DNA from: Candidatus Omnitrophota bacterium
GTDB taxonomy: Bacteria > Omnitrophota > Gorgyraeia > Tantalellales > Tantalellaceae
Length of the DNA: 64,000 bases
Assembly: GCA_049643885.1 (NCBI GenBank)
Contig: JBARQV010000033.1
Coordinates: 11,229-75,228, forward strand
Direction of reading: 5' to 3'
Positions 3,001 to 56,906 of this stretch are shown here, piece by piece. Made by a program: the position numbers and the translations under genes. Positions within the stretch are counted from its first letter, which is position 1; every line of letters begins with the position of its first letter. Under the pieces are notes generated by a model, which was not told the origin of the DNA, did no database searches, and worked only from the letters and a program-made list of their open reading frames with translations.

Positions 3001-6000
3001 CCTCTGGTTTATCTCGGGGGCTATTTTCGGGCTTATGAACCTTTTGGGGATTACTATTACTCCGGCCAGAAAGGATTTTGTTGAAGATTTTATTATTCCT
3101 TTACTTGAAGAAGGCGGTATGCTCCTGGTGCTGTGTTATTGGGGGGCGTTGCCATATTTATTAGTAAGGCTTGGATTTGCAATTATGCATGCAAGACGAA
3201 GCTTGATAAAGGCAATACTGGGGCGCGTATTCTTAGGCAGGGCACCCCCTGTGGGGGAAAAACCGATTTCTCAGCAAGTCATTGAACAGTTAACCATCCC
3301 CGCCATCGCATCAGCCGCAGCTCTCCTGCCCCTTATAGCTTTAGCTTTTGGAGTACCATTAAGCCCGGCAATATTCGGATTCGTTGCTGGGACAGGGCTC
3401 TTTGCCCATATCCTCGGGAACCGCTATGTTACGGAATTCAAGTCCCGCCTGCAGAAAGCTGTTCTGGGAGAAGAGCTAGGCATAGATTATGAAGGCCGCC
3501 CTGCCGCCTTGGAAAAAGTAAAAACAGACTATGAAACCCTGATACGCCCCCTGACAAATATTCCCTTTGATGAACTGCCGGGTGCGACAAAAGAGATATT
3601 GTTCGGGGCTGGAGTGGACAACGGGTTGGTAGAAATGAGTAGATCGGCAGGCAGAAACGCGAGGGATCTATTCCGGTCCGGTTTTCCAGTTCTAAAGGAC
3701 GCCATTTTGGTCGAGGGAGATCCTGACAGGACAAGGGAGAATCTAATGGCTATAGCTTCCGGCCTTGTAAGGATAGGCGCCGCAAGCGAGTCGTTCGGCC
3801 ATGCCGATTATGTGTTCAGGCTGGGCTTGCCGAAGCTTATACAGGCCTTCGGCCCGGAACTGATAAGGGAGCAGTGGGAAACTTTCGTGTTATTTGGAGA
3901 AACTGCCGGCAAGAATGCGAGATATCTTTTTGGAGCGACCTTGCCGGCGTTCAGGGAAACTATAATCGTAGAGGGGGACGTCCAGAGGACCAGGCAAAAT
4001 TTGCTGGACATCGGGAACAGTATTTTAAGAGTTGTGCCGGAAAACGATGAAATAGCTGAGGAATTACTTAATAACGCCTTGCCTGCGGTGAGCGGTATTA
4101 TCATCGTCGAAGGCGACGCGGAAAAGGCCAAGGATAATTTAAACAGGATCGGAAGCAGTGTTTTAAGAGTTCTTGAGGCAGCAGGCGATAAAGTGCGGGG
4201 CCTGTTCAGGCACGATTATCCCAGGATAGAGGCCGGGCTTGGCGCTGAATTTGTAAAAACACATTGGGAAGGCATTTTCAGATTGGGCGAAGCCGCGGGA
4301 ACGGCCGCAGGCAATTTCTTCAAAAACGGGTTTGCCGGCTTCATCCAAAGCTTTGGTTTAGATTTCCTGGAGAACAACTGGCAGGATATCGTAAAACTGG
4401 GTGAGATCGCGGGTAAGCGTTCAGGCTATGATGTAGGGAATATCTTTAACCGCACATTGGTAGGGTTCGCAAAGATCTATGGACTCGAATTCGTAAAAGA
4501 CAATTGGCGAGATCTCATGGATATCGCCGGATCTACCGGCAAAGACGCCGCTTTTCTTTTGTCAAACGGGTTTTATAGTCTGGAAGAAGGATTCGGCGCT
4601 GATTTTATTAAAGCGCACTGGAAAGACCTTGTGGAATATATCAAAACGAACGGTGAATACGCACTGGAACTGGTCAAGGACGGCTTACCGTCCATGAAAG
4701 AAGCGATCGTAGTAGCGGGAGATGAAGCGGAAACGAGGCAAAATCTCCGAGCCGTGGGCGAGGCGCTTGCGTCTGTCGCCAGGGCCGCGGGGAAGCAAGA
4801 AGCGACGTACGTTTTCAGTCAGCATCTTCCCGATATTAAAAGGCGGTTCGGTAAGGAGTTTATAAGGGATTGCTGGAAGGACATGCTGGGTCTGGGCGCG
4901 AGCACCGGTAAGAATGTAAGATATTTCTTCAGATACGCGCTTTCCGAGTTCAGCAAGACGATCGTGGTAAAAGAGGACGTGGAAAAGACGCGTGAAAATC
5001 TCCGCGCCATAGGAAATGAGCTTGTAAAACTCAGCAATGCGGCGGGAGAACATGCGCTTGTAGTATTTGAGTACGGGATACCCGCCATGATAGGGGCGAT
5101 CGCGGTCGAAGGCAATGCAGAAGAAACTGCAAAAAATTTAGACATTATAGGAAGCGAACTTATAGCTTTGGCGCTGCTGGACGGCGAAGATGCCGGCAGA
5201 CTGTTCGAATATGGACTTCCGGCTCTCGAGAAAGTGCTTATAGTCGAACAGGATGCTGAAAAGACAAAAGAAAATCTTGCTAGTGCCGGAAAGGAGCTTT
5301 TTGAGCTTGCCGCAAAAGTTACAGGTGAGATGCGTATTTTTTGGCGAAGCATATTATGGTCCCAGGATGATATAGTTGCGGAAGGCGATTTCGCGCAAAC
5401 GATCGAAAATTTAAAGACTGTCGGAAAAGACCGCGTAGAATTCACCAATAACGCGGGTATGGGCGGAATTGCAGAAGATTTCTTTAAAACAGTTTTCAAT
5501 TTACGCTCACGCTTCGGACTGGATTTTCTGCCATGGCGTGATGTTATAAAATTCGGCAGAATACACTTTATTTATAATCTAAGCAACAAAGTGGGATGGG
5601 AATTTGTAAGGTCTTATTGGGGGGATTTAATAGAGATCGGTGCTGTCCTGGGGTACAAAACAGGAGAGATGTTCAATGAGGTACTTCCGGCGGTAAAATC
5701 CCTGGTTACTCCCGAAAGTATTCAGGATCTGGTCAGATGGGTGTCGTTAGGCGATCCTGTTGATACCGATATATTGAAGGAATTTCTGGCTTTATCCCGC
5801 GAAGAAAGGGCGGATTATTTTAATACCCGCGAGGATGAGCTGGCCAGAATACGCGATGGCAAATTCGACATAGCTGATCAAAAACACCTTTTTATCGGAT
5901 ACCGGCTTATTCTCGACGATATCCGAGACAATCCGACTGTAAAAAAAGACATAACATATAAAGAATATTTATCTTATGTAAAAGCCGGAAAGCCCGCCAA

Positions 6001-9060: not shown

Positions 9061-12000
9061 ATGAATTGGCTTAAGAGGGTTCACAGGGATCAAGAGATCA
9101 AGAAGCTCTTCAGCTTCCAGAGGCGGAGTCTAGCCCTTAAAGCCTGTTCAGTTATCACCTCGGTCGCGTTTTTCTTTAATATTCTTTCTTACGATATCGC
9201 CCTTTCGGGCCCCCTCCAGAAAAAACAACCGGCTACGGAAGGGCAAGCCTGGGCCATACGAGTTCCGCCGGAGTCTTCTCACGTCGGCTCCGGTGTGAAC
9301 TCAGGCCCGGGCACTCCCCAAAAGCTTACCATCAAAGGCTTTACACTGCCCGAATATCTTGGTGTGGTGACCGACAGGTTCAGTCCCCCGGCGAAGGAAC
9401 CTGATAAGATAGTGGTTTTGATACAGGACGCGCATTGTAACTATGCGGCCCAGAAAAAGATCGCCGAGATCGTCCGGCATTTCAACAAGCTCTACCGCGT
9501 GCGCGTCGTCAACATGGAAGGAGGTAAGGGCGATTATAACCTTTCGATATTCCTGGATATAGGCGACAAGAAGGTCAGGGAAGAGGTATCCGATTACTTT
9601 GTGAAAGAGGGGCAGATAAGCGGCGCTGAATACTTCGCCATAAACGATCCTTTCAGGGCCTACTTATGGGGAGTGGAAACCTCTGAACTTTACCTGGAGA
9701 ACCTTAAAGTTTACAGGGAGTCCCTTGGATACAGAGGTGAAGTCGAGTATTTCCTGGATTCGCTTACCTATATTTTGAACAATCTTAAGCGGCACATTTA
9801 TTCGAAGGAACTCTTGGATTTTGACAACGAATATTCCCGGTATAAGGCCGGCGATATCAAATTCAAGGATTACGTGAATTACCTTTTAAGCGTGGCCAAG
9901 GAGAAAAAGGTATATATCAAGAATCTCCTGCACCTGTATTTGTTATATCACTCGATAGCATGGGAAGGGGAAATAGATTTCAAGAGAGCGGATCATGAAA
10001 GGGATATCTTGATCAGCAGGCTTGAAGGCGTTCTGTCCGGGAAGGAGATGGACGAGCTTATCAACAAGACCGTAGAGTTCAGGAACAAGAGGCTTTCGCA
10101 GACCGAATTCTACGGGTATCTCCTGAAGAAGGCGGAGGAAGTGAAGCTCGACCTGGCCGATTTCCCGGAGTTCAAAAAATACCTCGGTTATATTTTCCTC
10201 TATCATGTCGTGGACAGGGCAAAAGTAATGGAGGAGATAGGCATTCTCGAAAACGCTATAAAAGGATCTCTTTACGAGAACGATAAACAGAAGGAGCTAG
10301 ACCTTCTTTCCAAGCATTTGACTCTTACAAAGAACTTTTTCGACGCCACTTTGACAAGAAGCGATTACGAATATTACGAACAGAACAAATTAGCGTTTGA
10401 AACACAGAATTACATTTCGTTTATAGAAAAAGAAGCCCCAAAGTACAAAATAACCGCCCAACTGCCTTCTGATATACAAAATCTTGATTTTCGTATGGCC
10501 GAAATGGACAAGTTCTACGAATACTCGTTCAAGAGGGACCTCGCCTTCCTCGACAACATAAAATTTAATGCGACTGAATCTCCAACATCCAACATCCAAC
10601 AACCAACATCTATTTTGATTACCGGCGGTTTCCACGCCGAAAATCTCTGTAAGTTGTTTAAAGAAAATGATATAGCATATATATGCATAATGCCGAATTT
10701 TACGAGCGAAGAAGGTTATGTTTGCCCGTATTTCGACCTCTTGGCGGGTGAAAGACCTCAAGTTGAAATGATGATCAGCGATATCATGGGCTATTCACTT
10801 GCTATAGCGAGCATACTCAGCCAGCTGGGGCCGGACGTGTATGATGAAAACGCTCGCAGGATATTCGGGCTTCATGTTCAGTGGAAACGCGCTGTGGCGG
10901 AAGGAAAAGGCGGCCTCGCGATCATGGCAGAGGATGGGAGATTCCTCGGCGCGGTCAATGCCAGGGGAGAGATCGTCCCTGAAGACAGGTCAAAAGGCTT
11001 TGAAGTGGCGCGGGTTCCGGCAGTTGTCCCGGCTATCGCTCCGGCAACTCCCGAATTGGTGGATCTATTCGGGAACTGGTTCGATCTGAATCTGGAACTT
11101 GATTATTTTAGCGGAGAGTTTGAAAGAGGTGAGGCGAAAGGGCTGGCGGCGATACAGGAAGGGGTGCAGGCCGAAAGAGGCATGTATCCCAAAGAAGAAA
11201 TAGAAGGCGGCGATTTCTATTTTGACCTGGAAGCCTTCTCTTATTTTTCAAGGGGACTTATCGACAAAGCCACTTTAGCGGAAGTCATGAGGCCTTACAG
11301 CGATAAGCTGCCCGGCCAGATAAATGTTATAGTCGTGGACAAAGGACCAAAGGCCGTAGCCAGATACGGGAACACTATAGCGATAAACCGCGCCGTGTTC
11401 GAGCTTACGCGCGGCGTCTCTCCCGTTATCCGCAATTTGATCACTATGAAACTCCTGGACACGGCCCTGAGGGCAAGCAGCGAGACCGGTATCAGGGAAG
11501 GAGAGGATCTGGGTATTTCGCTTGCAGACCTGAGAAGGGTCGGGAGCCGCGAGAAACCGGACAGGATAATGGAAGTCATACGCCAGGTATTCTCTCCAGA
11601 GTCAAAACTCGCTTCCGACGAACAGGAAGAAAATCTGATCCTGGCTTACGATTATGACCAAAAATATATTGCTCAAGGCAGTTTCAACGAAGAGATACTG
11701 AAACAGGCCATTAAAAGAGGTTTCACCACGGTCATAGTTAGATTTTTGGAAGGCGACGTCATAGGAGGACAGGTCGAGGTCATATTCGCGAACAAGTCGG
11801 ACGTGCTAGTGGAACGGATAGATATGCTTCCCGAGAATATGGATGTTCTTTTCTCGGCCGTCGGCGAGAACATGGAACCGGGCTCCGTATGGCGCTTCAC
11901 GCGGCGTTTCCTGACATACGATATTAAACGACGAGCGTTTCTCGCAAAAGAACGCCCCAGGATAATGACCTACGAATTGGAGAGAAAACTTGAAGTGTAT

Positions 12001-40276: not shown

Positions 40277-40702
40277 TCAGTATCTCATGAATTGCAGGAG
40301 ATGGATGGTGAAGACGTTCATGCCGATGATGATCCGGGTGATCCTGAACAGCTGATTGAAGAAAGAGCGTCTTTTCGATGTAAGGATCTTCCAGCTCCCT
40401 TCAAGGACAAGGAACATTCCCGCCAGGAAGGCGAACCAGTCTATGCTGACTTCGGCAAAGGGCGTGTCGAAAAGCCAGCAATTAACGAGAAAGCAGATAG
40501 TTATCAGTGCCAGGAGCCCTATTATCTGTAAGAATTTTTCCGTCATGACACAGAATTTACCATATACCACGCAGAGATGCAAATATCCGGCATGATACGG
40601 GCTATGGGGGCAGGCGAGAATTGATTTCTGCAAAAACAATAAAATCCTTCCCACCAAATTAAAATATCTATTCCGGCGGATACATGCCTTCCGTCTCGAC
40701 AA
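40277..40702 (-). CDS. Possible small membrane protein (hypothetical); start uncertain (TTG at 40702 or ATG at 40546)
   Basis: ORF with two or three hydrophobic helices (LLALITICFLVNCWLF, AFLAGMFLVLEGSW, IIIGMNVFTIHLL); no clear RBS; sits in the only sizeable non-coding gap. Confidence 0.25.
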   Translation of the reverse strand: MSRRKACIRRNRYFNLVGRILLFLQKSILACPHSPYHAGYLHLCVVYGKFCVMTEKFLQIIGLLALITICFLVNCWLFDTPFAEVSIDWFAFLAGMFLVLEGSWKILTSKRRSFFNQLFRITRIIIGMNVFTIHLLQFMRY

Positions 40703-41034
40703 AAATTCTTAACGCTTTTCCGTCATTTTAAGCTGACATGGCAAAACTCGCCCCTCGCTATAGGAATGCTCGGGGCTCGGACAGTTGCCATGCCTACGCA
40801 TGTTTAATAGCCGTGACAACTTCAGCTTAAAATATCCGGAAAAGCTGAATTTTTGAATGATCCGTCAGGCATGCATTCGCCGTTATATGATTTTATTGTT
40901 TTTGCAGAACTAATTTTCGCGCCCCTCTGCCACTTTGACACTTTTATGATGTAGTTGCCCAATTTATTGGGCAAACCATCGAGCAAGAATAGTTGCTCGA
41001 TAAATCGAGCAACTACATATATAATGGTTTTAAT

Positions 41035-41973
41035 ATGAAATACAGGAAAATCGCGAATACAGATCTCGAAGTCTCGTCCATATGTCTGGGCACGTGGGCG
41101 TTCGGCGGCGATTGCTGGGGAGAGGCGGATGACGCCCAGTCGATCCGCGTCATCGAAGAAGCCGTCGATAAAGGCATCAATTTTATCGATACCGCGCCGA
41201 TCTACGGCAGCGGCCGTTCGGAAGAAGTAGTGGGTAAAGCGATAAAAAATAAAGCAGGCGTTATTATCGCCACGAAATGCGGGCTTGAACAAAAAGGCAA
41301 ATCGATCAGGCCCAATCTGCATGCAGATTTCATAAGAAAAGAAGCGGAAGGATCTTTGCGCCGTCTTGGGGTGGAGACGATAGACCTCTACCAGTGCCAC
41401 TGGCCGGATCCCAATACATCCATGAAAGAGACTTTCGGTGAAATGGATAAGCTCGTCCGGGAAGGGAAAATAAAGTACATAGGTGTTTCAAATTTTGAAA
41501 AAGGCGTCCTTGAGAGATCCATGCGCGCGGCACCCATTGTAAGTGATCAGGTCGAGTATTCTCTTTTTAAAAGAAAGATCGAAGAAGAGCTCATGCCGTT
41601 TTGCGGAGAAAATAAAGTTTCAGTTCTCACGTACGGACCCTTGGGCGGGGGAATTTTGACGGGGAAATACAAAACGCCCCCGACGTTTCCAAAAGGAGAT
41701 GTCAGGAACTTTTTCTATACTTTTTATAAAGAACCTTTCTGGAGCAAGGCGAAGGCGCTTGTTTCAGTCCTTGAAGAGCTTGCCGCGAAGAGACAGTGCC
41801 CGGTATCGGATATCGCTATTAATTGGGTTTTAAGCCACGCAGCTGTAACAAGTTGCATTGTCGGGTGCAGGACGCCCGAACAGCTCCGTCAGAATATCAC
41901 TGCCGCGGATTGGGAGCTGAGTGCGGATGAATTGGCTAAGATCCAAGGGGAGTATCAAAAAGTTTTTGGGTAG
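41035..41973 (+). CDS. Aldo/keto reductase family oxidoreductase
   Basis: MKYRKIANTDLEVSSICLGTWAFGG..., IDTAPIYG, LYQCHWPD, typical AKR motifs; in-frame upstream extension to 40993 is probably not used. Confidence 0.85.
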   Translation: MKYRKIANTDLEVSSICLGTWAFGGDCWGEADDAQSIRVIEEAVDKGINFIDTAPIYGSGRSEEVVGKAIKNKAGVIIATKCGLEQKGKSIRPNLHADFIRKEAEGSLRRLGVETIDLYQCHWPDPNTSMKETFGEMDKLVREGKIKYIGVSNFEKGVLERSMRAAPIVSDQVEYSLFKRKIEEELMPFCGENKVSVLTYGPLGGGILTGKYKTPPTFPKGDVRNFFYTFYKEPFWSKAKALVSVLEELAAKRQCPVSDIAINWVLSHAAVTSCIVGCRTPEQLRQNITAADWELSADELAKIQGEYQKVFG

Positions 41974-41977
41974 GTTA

Positions 41978-42136
41978 TCGTGAGGTAGGATATCAGGGGA
42001 TTGGGAAATCAGGGGGAAGAATATCAGGGGATTAGGGCATCAGGAACACCTGATATCCTGGTTCTCTGATTACCTGTCCCCTGATAACCGGATGCCCCGA
42101 TAATCTACCTCCCGATTCCCTAATATTCTGATATCC
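41978..42136. repeat. Long imperfect palindrome built from GATATCAGGG / CCCTGATATC units between convergent genes; probable bidirectional terminator/structured repeat
   Basis: Left arm has repeated ATATCAGGGG units, right arm has complementary CCCTGATA / CCCGATTCCC units; located between the AKR stop (41973) and GH1 stop (42142). Confidence 0.6.
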
Positions 42137-42141
42137 CTTCT

Positions 42142-43449
42142 TCATTCAATCTTTCCAGTCCTTATTACTTTTGCCAGGTATCTCGCTGAATCTCTAATAG
42201 TACGTTTCTGCGTCTTGTAATCCACCTCGATCAGGCCGAAACGCGGTCGGTAGCCTTCAGCCCATTCAAAATTGTCCAGGAGCGACCAATAGAGGTAACC
42301 GATCATGTCCACGCCTTCGTTTATCGCGCGCAGGACCTGGGCAAGATGGTCTTTTATGAATTTTTTGCGGGTATCATCATCCGAGGCAATGCCGTTCTCG
42401 GTTATGAATATCGGCAAGCCGTAGCGTGAAAAGGTCTTCGCGGCCTCGTATATTCCCTCGGGATATATCTCCCATCCCATATCGGTCCTTTTTCCTGTTA
42501 CATGATGTTCGCGGGAGCAGATCTCTCCTATGGGTTTTTTTACCATAGGCCTTATGAAATGGACGTGTTCCCTTGTGTAGTAGTTAAGGCCGATAAAGTC
42601 CAGCGTGTTCTTCACCGGGAGTTTTTCGTTGATGTAGGGAAAGAAGAAGGACCGCCCGGTTATCGCGGACCTTATAAAACTGTGGTTGTAAAAATTACTC
42701 CTAAGGAAGGCCGCAAGCCTATGCCGTATCGAGTGCCTGGTGCAGGGATGGAAGGCAGTAACAGCCTTAGCGATGCTGATCTTGGGTTCTTTTGCCCCGA
42801 CAGAAGAGCGAGCGGTTTCTTTCATTTCGCGATAAGCTTCAACATGGCCTTTCAGCATGTTTTTCAACGTTGTAAGGGCATCATAATGGGTCATTTTCTC
42901 AGGGGGCCACTTACTGTTCACGTAACTTCCAAGAGCCACGACGCACGGTTCATTTATGGTCATCCACCACCGGACGCGGTCGCCCAGTTCCTTAACGGCG
43001 CGAGCGGCGAAGCGGGTGAAAAGCTTGGCTGAATCACCGCTTAACCATCCGCCCTTGCGCTCGAACCAGACGGGAATAGTGAAGTGGTTGAGCGTTACCA
43101 TCGGTTCTATCCCAAGTTTGATAAGCTCGTCAACGACCTCTTTGTAGTGGTCCCATTCCTTCCGGTCCCAGACCCCGTCATCTTTTTCAACCCGGCTCCA
43201 TTCGATACCGAACCTGTGGACGTTATGGCAGAGCTCTTTGGCGATCGCGAAGTCTTCTTTGAACCGGTGATACTGGTCGCAGGCCTTCCCGGAAGGCTGG
43301 ATGTGGCCCGACTGTTCCCACTCCCACCAGTTATTGTTAACATTGTCGCCCTCGACCTGGTGAGCGGAAGTAGCCGAACCCCACATAAAATTTTCAGGAA
43401 ACCTGTCGCTCATGTGGATATTATACACGGAAATTGATGTTTTGAACAT
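42142..43449 (-). CDS. Glycoside hydrolase family 1 beta-glucosidase
   Basis: FPENFMWGSATSAHQVEG N-terminal signature, TINEP and ITENG catalytic glutamate motifs; alternative start ATG at 43413. Confidence 0.9.
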   Translation of the reverse strand: MFKTSISVYNIHMSDRFPENFMWGSATSAHQVEGDNVNNNWWEWEQSGHIQPSGKACDQYHRFKEDFAIAKELCHNVHRFGIEWSRVEKDDGVWDRKEWDHYKEVVDELIKLGIEPMVTLNHFTIPVWFERKGGWLSGDSAKLFTRFAARAVKELGDRVRWWMTINEPCVVALGSYVNSKWPPEKMTHYDALTTLKNMLKGHVEAYREMKETARSSVGAKEPKISIAKAVTAFHPCTRHSIRHRLAAFLRSNFYNHSFIRSAITGRSFFFPYINEKLPVKNTLDFIGLNYYTREHVHFIRPMVKKPIGEICSREHHVTGKRTDMGWEIYPEGIYEAAKTFSRYGLPIFITENGIASDDDTRKKFIKDHLAQVLRAINEGVDMIGYLYWSLLDNFEWAEGYRPRFGLIEVDYKTQKRTIRDSARYLAKVIRTGKIE

Positions 43450-43600
43450 ATGTCATCCCAGGCGAGGCTGAAATAGAAATATGTCATCCCGGAAACTGCC
43501 GAAGGCAGTTATCCGGGACCCAATAAAATTATTATGTGATCCCCGCTTTCGCGGGGATGACATATGCCTAAATCGGCGAATTCCGGGATGACATACTTTC
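43447..43600. repeat. Cluster of REP/MITE-like short repeats (GGGATGACAT core in both orientations, GCCTTCGGC / GCCGAAGGC tetraloop hairpins)
   Basis: ATGTCATCCC(A/G)G at 43450 and 43482, reverse copies CGGGGATGACAT at about 43547 and CCGGGATGACATA at about 43580; 23-nt string TCGGCGAATTCCGGGATGACATA recurs at 49281. Confidence 0.6.
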
Positions 43601-50122: not shown

Positions 50123-51334
50123 ATGGCAAATAATGACGTGATAAAAGTGATACTGGACAAATGTACGGGCTGCACGCTTTGCGTGAAGGTGTGCCCGTTT
50201 GACGCCATCAAGATGGTGGATAAAAAAGCGGTCATAGATCTGAGCAAGTGCACTCTATGCGGCGCGTGTGTGGACGCCTGTAAGTTTAACGCCATCATCA
50301 TACAAAAAACCGAAAAGAAAGAAAAGGTCGACCTTTCCGCCTACAGGGACGTGTGGGTATTTTGCGAGCAGAAGAAAGGCAAGGTCCAGTCCGTAGCTTT
50401 CGAGCTTTTAGGTAAAGGAAGAGAACTCGCCGATAAATTAGGCGTCAGTCTCTGCGCGGTCCTCCTCGGGGAGAATGTCGGGGAAGAAGGCGATGAACTT
50501 ATCGCGCGAGGCGCGGACAAGGTATACCTGGCCGACAACCCGAAACTACGCGCGTACCAGGACGAACCGTATACGAAGGTCTTGACCGAATTGGTCCGGA
50601 AGCATAAACCCGAGATCGTTCTTTGCGGCGCCACTACCATAGGCCGGAGCCTTATTTCCCGCGTAGCCGTCAAGATCGAAGCAGGGCTCACGGCCGATTG
50701 CACAGGGTTGGACATAGACCCGGAAGAGAGGCTTCTGCTGCAGACCAGGCCGGCTTTTGGCGGCAACATCATGGCTACGATCATCTCGCCTAACGCCAGA
50801 CCGCAGATGGCGACGGTGAGGCATAAGGTCATGAAAGAAGCAGTTCCGGAAAAAGGCAGGAAAGGCGAGGTCATCAAGGAAGAGTTCCCCGAAGAGATCT
50901 ATACCTCCCGCAGTAAGCTTATAGATATCGTAGAAGAAATAGAAGAAACGATAAACATCGCCGAAGCGAATATCATTGTATCCGGCGGAAGAGGGGTAGG
51001 GTCAAAAGAAAATTTCGATATCATCAAGGATTTTGCCCTTTCCGTCAATGCCGCTGTCGGCGCTTCAAGAGCGGCGGTAGATTCCGGATGGATGCCGTAT
51101 TCCCATCAGGTAGGGCAGACCGGGAAAACGGTTTGTCCTAAACTTTACATCGCGTGCGGGATCAGCGGACAGATACAGCATCTTGTAGGCATGAAAAGTT
51201 CAGACGTGATCGTCGCTATCAATAAAGATCCCGAAGCACCAATATTCAGCGTAGCCACTTACGGAATAGTGGACGACCTCTTCAAAGTCGTTCCTCTCCT
51301 CACAAAGCAATTCCAGCAGGTATTAGGTAAATAG
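50123..51334 (+). CDS. etfA: Electron transfer flavoprotein alpha subunit with N-terminal 2x[4Fe-4S] ferredoxin domain
   Basis: Two CxxCxxCxxxCP motifs in first 60 aa followed by EtfA FAD-binding domain (...VAINKDPEAPIFSVATYGIVDD). Confidence 0.85.
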   Translation: MANNDVIKVILDKCTGCTLCVKVCPFDAIKMVDKKAVIDLSKCTLCGACVDACKFNAIIIQKTEKKEKVDLSAYRDVWVFCEQKKGKVQSVAFELLGKGRELADKLGVSLCAVLLGENVGEEGDELIARGADKVYLADNPKLRAYQDEPYTKVLTELVRKHKPEIVLCGATTIGRSLISRVAVKIEAGLTADCTGLDIDPEERLLLQTRPAFGGNIMATIISPNARPQMATVRHKVMKEAVPEKGRKGEVIKEEFPEEIYTSRSKLIDIVEEIEETINIAEANIIVSGGRGVGSKENFDIIKDFALSVNAAVGASRAAVDSGWMPYSHQVGQTGKTVCPKLYIACGISGQIQHLVGMKSSDVIVAINKDPEAPIFSVATYGIVDDLFKVVPLLTKQFQQVLGK

Positions 51335-51585
51335 GGTATTAGGATATCAGGGTATCAGGGGGCAGGATACCGGGATATCAGGGTATCAGGGGGCAGGATA
51401 CCGGGGTATCAGGGTATCAGGAGGTAGGATCCCAGGGTATCAGGGTATTTGGGGGGCAGGGTATCAGTATATCGGGATACCAGTTTTTTGTCCCTAATAA
51501 CCCGATTACCTGATACCCAGCCTCCCGATTTCCCGGTTTCCTGATATCCTATCTCCCGATTCCCCAATTTCCTGATCTTTCTCCC
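51335..51585. repeat. Long hairpin-forming repeat array (GGGTATCAGGG units, tandem 31-nt duplication, then complementary CCTGATA(C/T)CC units); same family as 41978-42136
   Basis: ATATCAGGGTATCAGGGGGCAGGATACCGGG occurs twice in tandem; downstream arm is its approximate reverse complement; shares CCCGATTCCC and GATTACCTG with the 42-kb copy. Confidence 0.65.
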
Positions 51586-51654
51586 TTGACTACTACCACT
51601 TAGTTAGGTATACTCAATGAAACATCCCTAAACATAAATAAAGGTGTTCAAACT

Positions 51655-56849: not shown

Positions 56850-56906
56850 ATAGTCAACTTACAAGTTAAGAGATAAAATATCAAGAAGGACTTGTGAAAG
56901 CGGTTA

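Follow-up and report, generated by a model that had tools for sequence, protein, structure and literature searches.

Two octamer foldbacks lie in short gaps between genes

The window analyzed here is a stretch of 64,000 nt from a contig of a Candidatus Omnitrophota bacterium (JBARQV010000033.1), and our subject is a pair of repeat elements within it, locus 1 (51335-51585, 251 nt) and locus 2 (41974-42139, 166 nt), neither of which contains a listed open reading frame (ORF) of at least 60 aa. Locus 1 sits between the stop codon of etfA (51334) and the promoter of an operon with a merR-like gene and smc. Locus 2 occupies all of the space that separates the stop codons of two convergent genes, an aldo-keto reductase gene (40993-41973) and a GH1 gene (42142-43449, minus strand); it begins right after the first stop codon (41973) and ends 2 nt short of the second. 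Both elements are imperfect palindromes whose 5′ arm is an array of ATCAGGnn octamers and whose 3′ arm consists of the complementary nnCCTGAT octamers.

The initial annotation had recognized two long hairpin-forming sites here, and Tandem Repeats Finder (TRF), an inverted-repeat search and folding all place them where it did. It had taken a decamer as the basic unit, whereas the unit is in fact the octamer. The string it used as a label for the family, CCCTGATATC, has no literal occurrence, the closest being CCTGATATCC at 42049 and 51540. At both loci an irregular unit of 7-9 nt, similar to gCAGGAT (GGGCAGGAT, GGGAAGAAT), follows each third octamer, so that three octamers and one irregular unit (8+8+8+7) give rise to a super-period of 31 nt. 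In the 5′ arm of locus 1, TRF found period 8 at 51333-51467 and period 31 at 51342-51460 (3.8 copies, 88% matches), and in the 3′ arm both periods at 51501-51576. The perfect 31-nt tandem duplication noted previously in the left arm does exist, although not at 51353-51415 but in the interval given in Table 1, and it is a mark of recent slippage or unequal exchange. The inner arms of locus 1 (51436-51479 and 51498-51541) are 73% complementary; because its 3′ arm is the shorter one, the surplus 5′ units self-fold in the predicted structure. Locus 2 has two arms of 74 nt (41971-42044; 42049-42122) that are 70% complementary and 4 nt apart, and the left one contains a 31-nt direct repeat.

The motif GGKATCAGG occurs 9 times in the window, against an expectation of 0.98, and clusters of ATCRGG or CCYGAT are confined to these two loci within the 64 kb; this enrichment and clustering are not due to chance. 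Two substrings had been put forward as shared by the loci: CCCGATTCCC is indeed limited to them, while GATTACCTG is non-diagnostic, with five more occurrences elsewhere in the window.

Table 1. Positions of the parts of both elements and of the sequences that border locus 1.
Feature	Position	Strand	Description
Locus 1, 5′ arm (G-rich)	51335..51479	+	About 17 octamers (ATCAGGGn, ACCGGGnn); irregular GGGCAGGAT / AGGTAGGAT every third unit
Locus 1, perfect tandem duplication	51342..51405	+	Super-unit GGATATCAGGGTATCAGGGGGCAGGATACCG (2 x 31 nt + 2); longest perfect period-31 run
Locus 1, apex/loop	51480..51497	.	T6 run (CCAGTTTTTTGTCCC); 18 nt separating the inverted-repeat arms
Locus 1, 3′ arm (C-rich)	51498..51585	+	CCYGATnn units; irregular CCCAGCCTC / ATCCTATCTC; period 31, 2.5 copies
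Locus 2, 5′ arm	41974..42044	+	GGTTATC terminus, then ATCAGGGG / ATTGGGAA / ATCAGGGG / GAAGAAT units; two 31-nt super-units
Locus 2, apex	42045..42048	.	4-nt loop (inverted-repeat search and fold)
Locus 2, 3′ arm	42049..42139	+	CCTGATnn / CCTGGTnn / CCCGATnn units
Last 16 nt of etfA (outside the element)	51319..51334	+	GGTATTAGGTAAATAG (...VLGK*); TRF, period 8 at 51319-51360
Promoter-like sequence of the merR-like/smc operon (outside the element)	51586..51614	+	TTGACT-17-TATACT; promoter scan

The elements belong to a family found in several phyla

We scanned one genome per species with a degenerate pattern drawn from both loci and obtained at least 118 stretches. Among the matches listed, many are chance hits in coding DNA and dozens are foldbacks of about 130 nt with the same build. 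According to the record labels, the carriers belong to the Sedimentisphaerales, Phycisphaerae, Pirellulales, Planctomycetia, Candidatus Omnitrophota, Elusimicrobia, Syntrophaceae, other 'Deltaproteobacteria' metagenome-assembled genomes (MAGs; Desulfobacterota-type) and Candidatus Aegiribacteria, with weaker cases labelled Acidobacteriota and Anaerolineaceae. The family thus spans several phyla by these labels, Planctomycetota among them, and is not genome-specific, contrary to what the initial annotation had suggested. An alignment of 25 copies gave the consensus AGGnnATCAGGnnATCAGGAnATCAGGnTGCAGGATATCAGGGnATCAGGATATCAGG - loop - CCTGATATCCTGATAnCCTGATATCCACTACCTGATAnCCTGATAnCCTGATAACC. The canonical element, of about 130 nt, consists of three ATCAGGnn octamers, the irregular unit TGCAGGAT and three more octamers, a variable loop, and then three CCTGATnn octamers, the irregular unit ATCCACTA and three more. 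The core of the unit elsewhere in the family has GG, not GGG.

A covariance model (R1) was built on these 25 copies, all from other organisms and none from the window, and it matched locus 2 at 41980-42113 with 82.7 bits (E 1e-20; 82.3 bits on the opposite strand) and locus 1 at 51388-51557 with 79.3 bits (E 9e-20). Both matches cover the full model (positions 1-155), and the window holds no other. In the 100 loci L007-L106 the model found about 36 strong and about 10 weaker matches, with more in the remaining loci, and copies can be as dense as three in about 5 kb. Across 184 arrays, the core-to-core spacing was 8 nt (369 cases), 15 nt (128), 16 nt (82) or 7 nt (40). The ATCAGG array stands 5′ of the CCTGAT array in 34 of 34 pairs, both window loci included, and the reverse order was never seen. 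Canonical copies have a strand polarity of 30-40 bits, set by the irregular units TGCAGGAT and ATCCACTA; the window copies lack this asymmetry, with near-equal strand scores and gCAGGAT-like units in both arms, and represent a symmetric variant.

These matches bear directly on whether each locus could have been invented on the spot, that is, grown in place by tandem expansion of a short seed followed by palindrome formation via template switching, without any transfer between sites. Such growth could have left behind the perfect 31-nt duplication, the octamer periodicity reaches into the coding end of etfA, and unrelated foldbacks occupy the gap downstream of etfA in two relatives (L125 and L126). 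Nevertheless, both loci are matched end to end, with E of about 1e-20 and down to the irregular unit and the 3+1+3 layout, by a model drawn from other phyla, and the two loci, 9 kb apart, share this architecture. We therefore disfavour local invention and regard it as very improbable.

No family match was found in viral contigs or plasmids, the former giving 0 hits, and a phage or plasmid origin was rejected on these grounds. In a literature of 8 million papers, searches for the unit strings of the family and for octanucleotide or inverted-repeat arrays returned no sequence match, only the Geobacter metallireducens analogues discussed below. The family of ATCAGG-octamer foldbacks appears to be unnamed so far and to have no Rfam model. 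Two other identities were also rejected: a CsrA-type GGA sponge, as an A follows GG in only 40% of units, and a G-quadruplex, as locus 1 holds a single G4-type motif and the core elsewhere in the family is GG.

Both sites are empty in close relatives

The homologues of EtfA are labelled Candidatus Omnitrophota, and the gene order fabG-acpP-fabF-acd-etfB-etfA-merR-smc is kept in four relatives (L125-L128), all with an equivalent TTGACA...TATACT block. In L128, whose EtfA is 86% identical, TTGACA-N17-TATACT lies about 40 nt past the etfA stop codon and the element is absent. It is likewise absent from L127 (EtfA 81%), which keeps etfA-merR-smc and the promoter. This promoter block, kept in the element-free relatives, sets the right-hand limit of the insertion at locus 1. 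As for locus 2, the aldo-keto reductase and GH1 genes of L126 are 11 nt apart, which constitutes an empty site. Since the gene order is shared and the element is missing, both copies are lineage-specific insertions, and they entered the source lineage in two short gene-free gaps. In near-identical strains (99.6-100%) the elements are identical.

Other palindromes were seen at the same position in relatives. In L125 (EtfA 82%) an unrelated foldback follows etfA at 5615-5750, with arms of two 24-nt tandem units around ACCAGG, and in L126 (EtfA 80%) other long inverted repeats lie downstream of the gene at 11210-11800. The gap downstream of etfA seems to collect palindromic elements. On its left side, the octamer periodicity of locus 1 extends 16 nt into the end of the etfA coding sequence (GGTATTAGGTAAATAG), which resembles the first two units of the array; relatives conserve the C-terminal LGK* of EtfA through other codons. 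Target preference, gene-end conversion or chance could each account for this. Two independent short-read Logan contigs (L004, L006) end at 51371, 37 nt into the locus 1 array, an instance of assemblies breaking at such arrays.

A subfamily with terminal repeats and target-site duplications

At the uppS-cdsA junction, the element is present in three related Planctomycetota genomes; one of these copies is missing the arm units between two ATCAGGgtATCAGG direct repeats, and a second, unrelated small element is nested at differing positions in two of the three. Downstream of floA, four genomes retain the ATCAGG arm alone. One-armed arrays were also observed in Candidatus Tantalella remota, where they make up most of the arrays and where all arrays on a contig share one direction; at 6950-7480 of L095, from this organism, there are five tandem units with a start-to-start spacing of 117 nt, each carrying one ATCAGG arm and, after it, short GATTCT/GATGCT repeats.

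Six copies of about 213 bp, found in 'Deltaproteobacteria' MAGs and in lake metagenomes at sites that are not related, have sharp boundaries and terminal inverted repeats (TIRs) of 21 bp (GTAGCAGTTTAGCGCTTTGAA ... TTCAAAGGGCTAAAGTATTAC). Their 8-bp flanking direct repeats match at 8, 7, 7, 7, 7 and 6 of 8 positions, compared with a mean of 2.1 and a maximum of 5 between different elements. This subfamily is a true MITE (a miniature transposable element with inverted repeats) that encloses the ATCAGG foldback. Its GTAA-type ends and 8-bp duplications would fit the IS66 family. In L055 (4393-4663, contig JAGXTA010000125.1) the same TIR (GTAACACTTTAGCTCTTTGAA / GTAACACTTTAGC) is followed 108 nt on by the start of an ORF (MESVVFRYRCRDIEPQDICFIQRTISQFYGKGRSHISRALCKAWGW...) running off the contig end, and we consider this a candidate autonomous insertion sequence (IS); the 54-aa ORF fragment had no match in Pfam, NCBIfam or a homologue search. 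The TIRs of the 213-bp MITE also bound an element of about 175 bp with another interior, made of the GC hairpins CCTCCCTTTGCCAAAGGGAGG and CCCCCTTTGGAAAAGGGGG (L156 1615-1787; L163 8579-8757 and 10441-10613). The ends of the MITE and its cargo are, then, separable modules.

All the evidence we gathered on dispersal and turnover led us to favour, with a probability of roughly 0.6, a reading in which both window loci are copies of a dispersed, MITE-like foldback repeat family that expands locally by slippage. Of the origins suggested in the initial annotation, a REP-like family or the remnant of a small mobile element, the substance has held up: there is one dispersed repeat family, the same sites are empty in relatives, and one subfamily has TIRs and 8-bp target-site duplications. 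The family would spread as non-autonomous DNA, the ATCAGG foldback may be the cargo of a MITE-type element or a module nested in it, and the copies of the window would have arrived via the same or a related trans-acting machinery. Once inserted, an array would change in length by slippage or by unequal exchange between its own direct repeats, which would have produced the 31-nt super-repeat and the perfect duplication of locus 1. The window copies share with MITEs their small non-coding size, their inverted arms (70-74% complementary) and their presence or absence at orthologous sites (L128, L127, L126).

Several observations, nevertheless, weigh against a mobile origin of this kind. The window copies have no outer TIR, and no target-site duplication was detected around them (flanking 8-mers, at least 7 matches, outside conserved promoter or coding sequence), such duplications being seen only in the 213-bp subfamily of other genomes; nor did we find for the window subfamily a counterpart of the TIR and ORF of L055. 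Two copies are all that was observed of the source genome, within 64 kb, and the source species is absent both from the matches listed in the one-genome-per-species scan and from a metagenome scan with a window-type pattern, which returned the general family. No arrangement of arm, gene and arm was found. A clustering of 733 neighbouring ORFs in search of a transposase gave two large clusters as well as smaller recurrent ones; those sampled, all among the smaller, were host genes (NfeD/FloA, uppS/cdsA, PhoH), with no transposase among them. Moreover, MITEs do not usually share one non-coding consensus across phyla, the retention of one-armed arrays at one site in several genomes could mean that the array itself has a host function, and the arrays are dispensable for the transposase of the 213-bp MITE, given that its TIRs also carry a different cargo.

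Motif and register are conserved, not base pairing

We folded both regions as RNA and as DNA, with 200 shuffles in each of the four runs (two loci, RNA and DNA). As RNA, locus 1 reached -128.4 kcal/mol (z -5.25) and locus 2 -89.2 kcal/mol (z -6.14); as DNA, the values were -47.2 (z -3.2) and -35.1 (z -3.5), respectively. In none of the four runs was any of the 200 shuffles as good, so the strongly stable structures anticipated for both sites were indeed predicted. The question was whether the hairpin itself is the selected feature, and in particular whether the elements are a structured RNA transcribed with the neighbouring operons, acting as a terminator, a stabilizer of mRNA 3′ ends or an RNase III site.

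Apart from the fold strength of both loci (z -5.3 and -6.1), two observations are congruent with such an RNA. At the window loci the plus strand, which is the sense strand for etfA, folds 13-14 kcal/mol better than the minus strand and has more G-U pairs. In addition, the gaps in which the elements occur are short and transcribed, and divergent promoter regions are avoided: copies lie 10-60 nt from both neighbouring genes, and of 16 placements 13 are in gaps between co-directional genes, two in convergent gaps and one in a divergent gap. The alignment of 25 copies told against it. Standard pairs made up 76.2% of the cells of the arm pairing, compared with 76.4 +/- 0.4% after the 3′ letters were shuffled among sequences (377 of 500 shuffles as high), and the covariation score of 0.109 against 0.105 in shuffled alignments was matched by 123 of 500 shuffles. 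Between arms, mismatches are frequent in the spacer dinucleotides and at the C/T position of the core, and opposed spacers are complementary at 50% of positions versus 45% by chance (370 of 2000 shuffles as high). The covariation term of RNAalifold was +0.2, and no compensatory changes were found across the 25 copies. Arm pairing is thus no better than conservation of the motif alone would give, and with pairing at the level of the shuffles and no covariation, the hairpin is physically plausible but not maintained by selection.

Other properties of the elements are equally hard to reconcile with an RNA. The polarity of canonical copies relative to flanking co-directional genes is antisense in eight cases and sense in five, which speaks against a strand-specific role; relative to the direction of transcription, copies are oriented at random. 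When fold energies of the two strands were compared, the trend was weak and inconsistent (14 vs 9, p 0.06), and a strand-specific RNA was rejected. One-armed copies persist. A scan for intrinsic terminators called none at either locus; the apex of locus 1 holds a weak candidate below the level of a call, GGTATC...GATACC with a 10-nt loop, followed by AGTTTTTT. Against all Rfam families at E up to 10, only sub-threshold hairpins of microRNA precursors, in effect hairpin noise, were returned, the best with 27.8 bits where the gathering score is 100. We consider a role as structured RNA quite unlikely. The elements are best read as selfish mobile DNA rather than as a tuned RNA structure, and the long hairpin predicted for DNA and RNA would be a physical by-product. 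It may nonetheless block or end transcription at both positions: the foldback of locus 1, which separates the fab/etf operon from the merR-smc promoter, may stop read-through, and that of locus 2 may stop the collision of convergent transcription.

What selection keeps is the hexamer, the 8-nt register and the inverted layout. Because these are conserved and the base pairs are not, the units are most likely recognition sites for a protein, iterated along the array and bound by a factor acting in trans. Conservation of motif and register without pairing points to a protein partner, and the separability of the modules makes the purpose of the arrays testable.

Whether that partner serves the element or the host is where a further alternative comes in, namely that the arrays are sites for a DNA-binding protein of the host (nucleoid-associated, partition-type or regulatory, polymerizing on 8-bp units) with a function in the chromosome, mobile elements being merely their carriers. 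MetJ binds 8-bp metboxes and the omega repressor binds 7-bp heptads. The TATCAG of the octamer presumably fits the WATCAR half of the IHF consensus. The hexamer is not palindromic, the 8-nt register is strict, and the convergent order is fixed at 34:0. Consistent with a host protein are also the absence of covariation, the one-armed arrays directly after floA in four genomes and the conservation of the motif across phyla, and for similar paired octamer or heptamer arrays of Geobacter metallireducens a role as IHF/HU sites has been guessed at (PMC2700814). However, both window sites are empty in close relatives, copies decay through unit loss, and copies lie inside a MITE that has target-site duplications. 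Furthermore, no candidate gene for the partner was seen nearby in the neighbour clusters sampled, and the spacing of 8 bp would be too tight for a footprint the size of that of IHF on each unit. On balance we find this alternative doubtful. We also raise, tentatively and as improbable, a broader form of it, in which the octamer arrays are docking sites for a sequence-specific protein that would occur in mostly uncultivated anaerobes from five phyla or more and would polymerize on DNA or single strands in the 8-nt register. The foldbacks and one-armed arrays would then serve chromosome organization, transcription insulation or recombination control, and MITEs would have picked the arrays up as cargo.

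Comparison with known repeat systems

The bacterial MITEs, such as Correia/NEMIS of Neisseria, ERIC/IRU of enterobacteria and RUP of pneumococcus, resemble the ATCAGG elements in being short, non-coding, multicopy and intergenic, with an imperfect palindrome that spans the whole element and a presence that varies between related genomes. To this can be added the ATCAGG subfamily with TIRs and 8-bp target-site duplications. They differ in that the ATCAGG arms are made of tandem 8-nt units with a fixed irregular unit and not of unique sequence, the consensus crosses phyla by record labels, the window copies lack an outer TIR and a duplication, and no parent IS was identified. Among eukaryotic elements, the foldback (FB) elements of Drosophila have long inverted arms of 10-, 20- and 31-bp tandem repeats, are kilobase-sized and in some cases carry transposase genes. 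The likeness is one of build alone: long inverted arms of short tandem repeats that vary in copy number, with little unique sequence between them, and no sequence relationship.

We also considered the repetitive extragenic palindromes (REP), with the bacterial interspersed mosaic elements (BIME) and REPINs that they form and the associated RAYT proteins. As in our family, these are abundant extragenic palindromes between genes, inverted pairs of units form long hairpins, and an influence on termination and on the stability of mRNA has been suggested. REP units are 20-40-nt palindromes tagged GTAG or CGTC (PMC3733652). Unlike them, ATCAGG units are non-palindromic octamers, there is no GTAG or CGTC tag at the ends of the window copies, and no RAYT-like gene was seen near copies in the neighbour clusters sampled. 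The ATCAGG elements therefore fall outside the definition of REP, just as they did not behave as a structured RNA in our tests.

The closest analogues that the literature returned are the paired tandem-repeat 'global regulator binding sites' of Geobacter metallireducens, whose classes 1-3 have the units (GTTGCTYN)4, (TCTCCGTS[Y])3 and (MTYCTGA)5 (Aklujkar et al. 2009, PMC2700814). They too are intergenic pairs on opposite strands with three to five tandem units of 7-9 nt, variable spacing between the halves and IS elements nearby (PMC2700814). Their unit sequences are different, and in a comparison made by unit consensus even class 3 (MTYCTGA), with its period of 7 nt, has no more than CCTGA in common. 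The paper presents these families as found in that genome alone, their function being a guess (PMC2700814).

How adjacent short repeats may work together is illustrated by the ends of IS607-family elements, where TnpA dimers assemble into a filament along four direct repeats of 9 bp (PMC6188088). There, as in the metboxes of MetJ and the heptads of omega, adjacent short repeats are bound cooperatively, and we take this as a lead on working principle only. The motifs of the IS607 ends are helically phased at 10-11 bp and do not make up a foldback. Set against all these systems, the class of the element is ordinary, and what sets the family apart is its build from octamers, its occurrence in several phyla and a protein partner that is still missing. 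It also offers a ready marker of genome dynamics in uncultivated lineages.

Other features of the window

A different intergenic repeat lies upstream of the GH1 gene, at 43444-43600, where ATATGTCATCCC is present in three direct copies and GGGATGACAT in two inverted ones. It includes a small GC hairpin at 43533-43564 (TATGTGATCCCCGC / GCGGGGATGACATA) that is similar to a small element lying within foldbacks in L034 and L122 (GTCATTCCCGCGAAAGCGGGAATC, TIR GTATCTGTTGCGGA). In the 800-nt gap preceding the aldo-keto reductase gene, 40619-40916 has a 28-nt inverted repeat, 89% complementary (AATTGATTTCTGCAAAAACAATAAAATC / GATTTTATTGTTTTTGCAGAACTAATTT), around 242 nt with an inner inverted repeat (40716-40736 / 40822-40842), and is MITE-like in appearance.

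The stretch 8-40192 contains six consecutive very long ORFs (3012, 3456, 2320, 905, 2454 and 1103 aa). The three of them that were checked had no Pfam family at E<=1e-10, and with three lacking a Pfam match an identity as polyketide synthases or non-ribosomal peptide synthetases was rejected. A further giant gene starts near 56894 and codes for 11,637 aa in L001. Finally, purines are in strong excess on the plus strand over the whole window, with a GC skew of about +0.15 and an AT skew of about +0.1, and this strand carries almost all the long ORFs.

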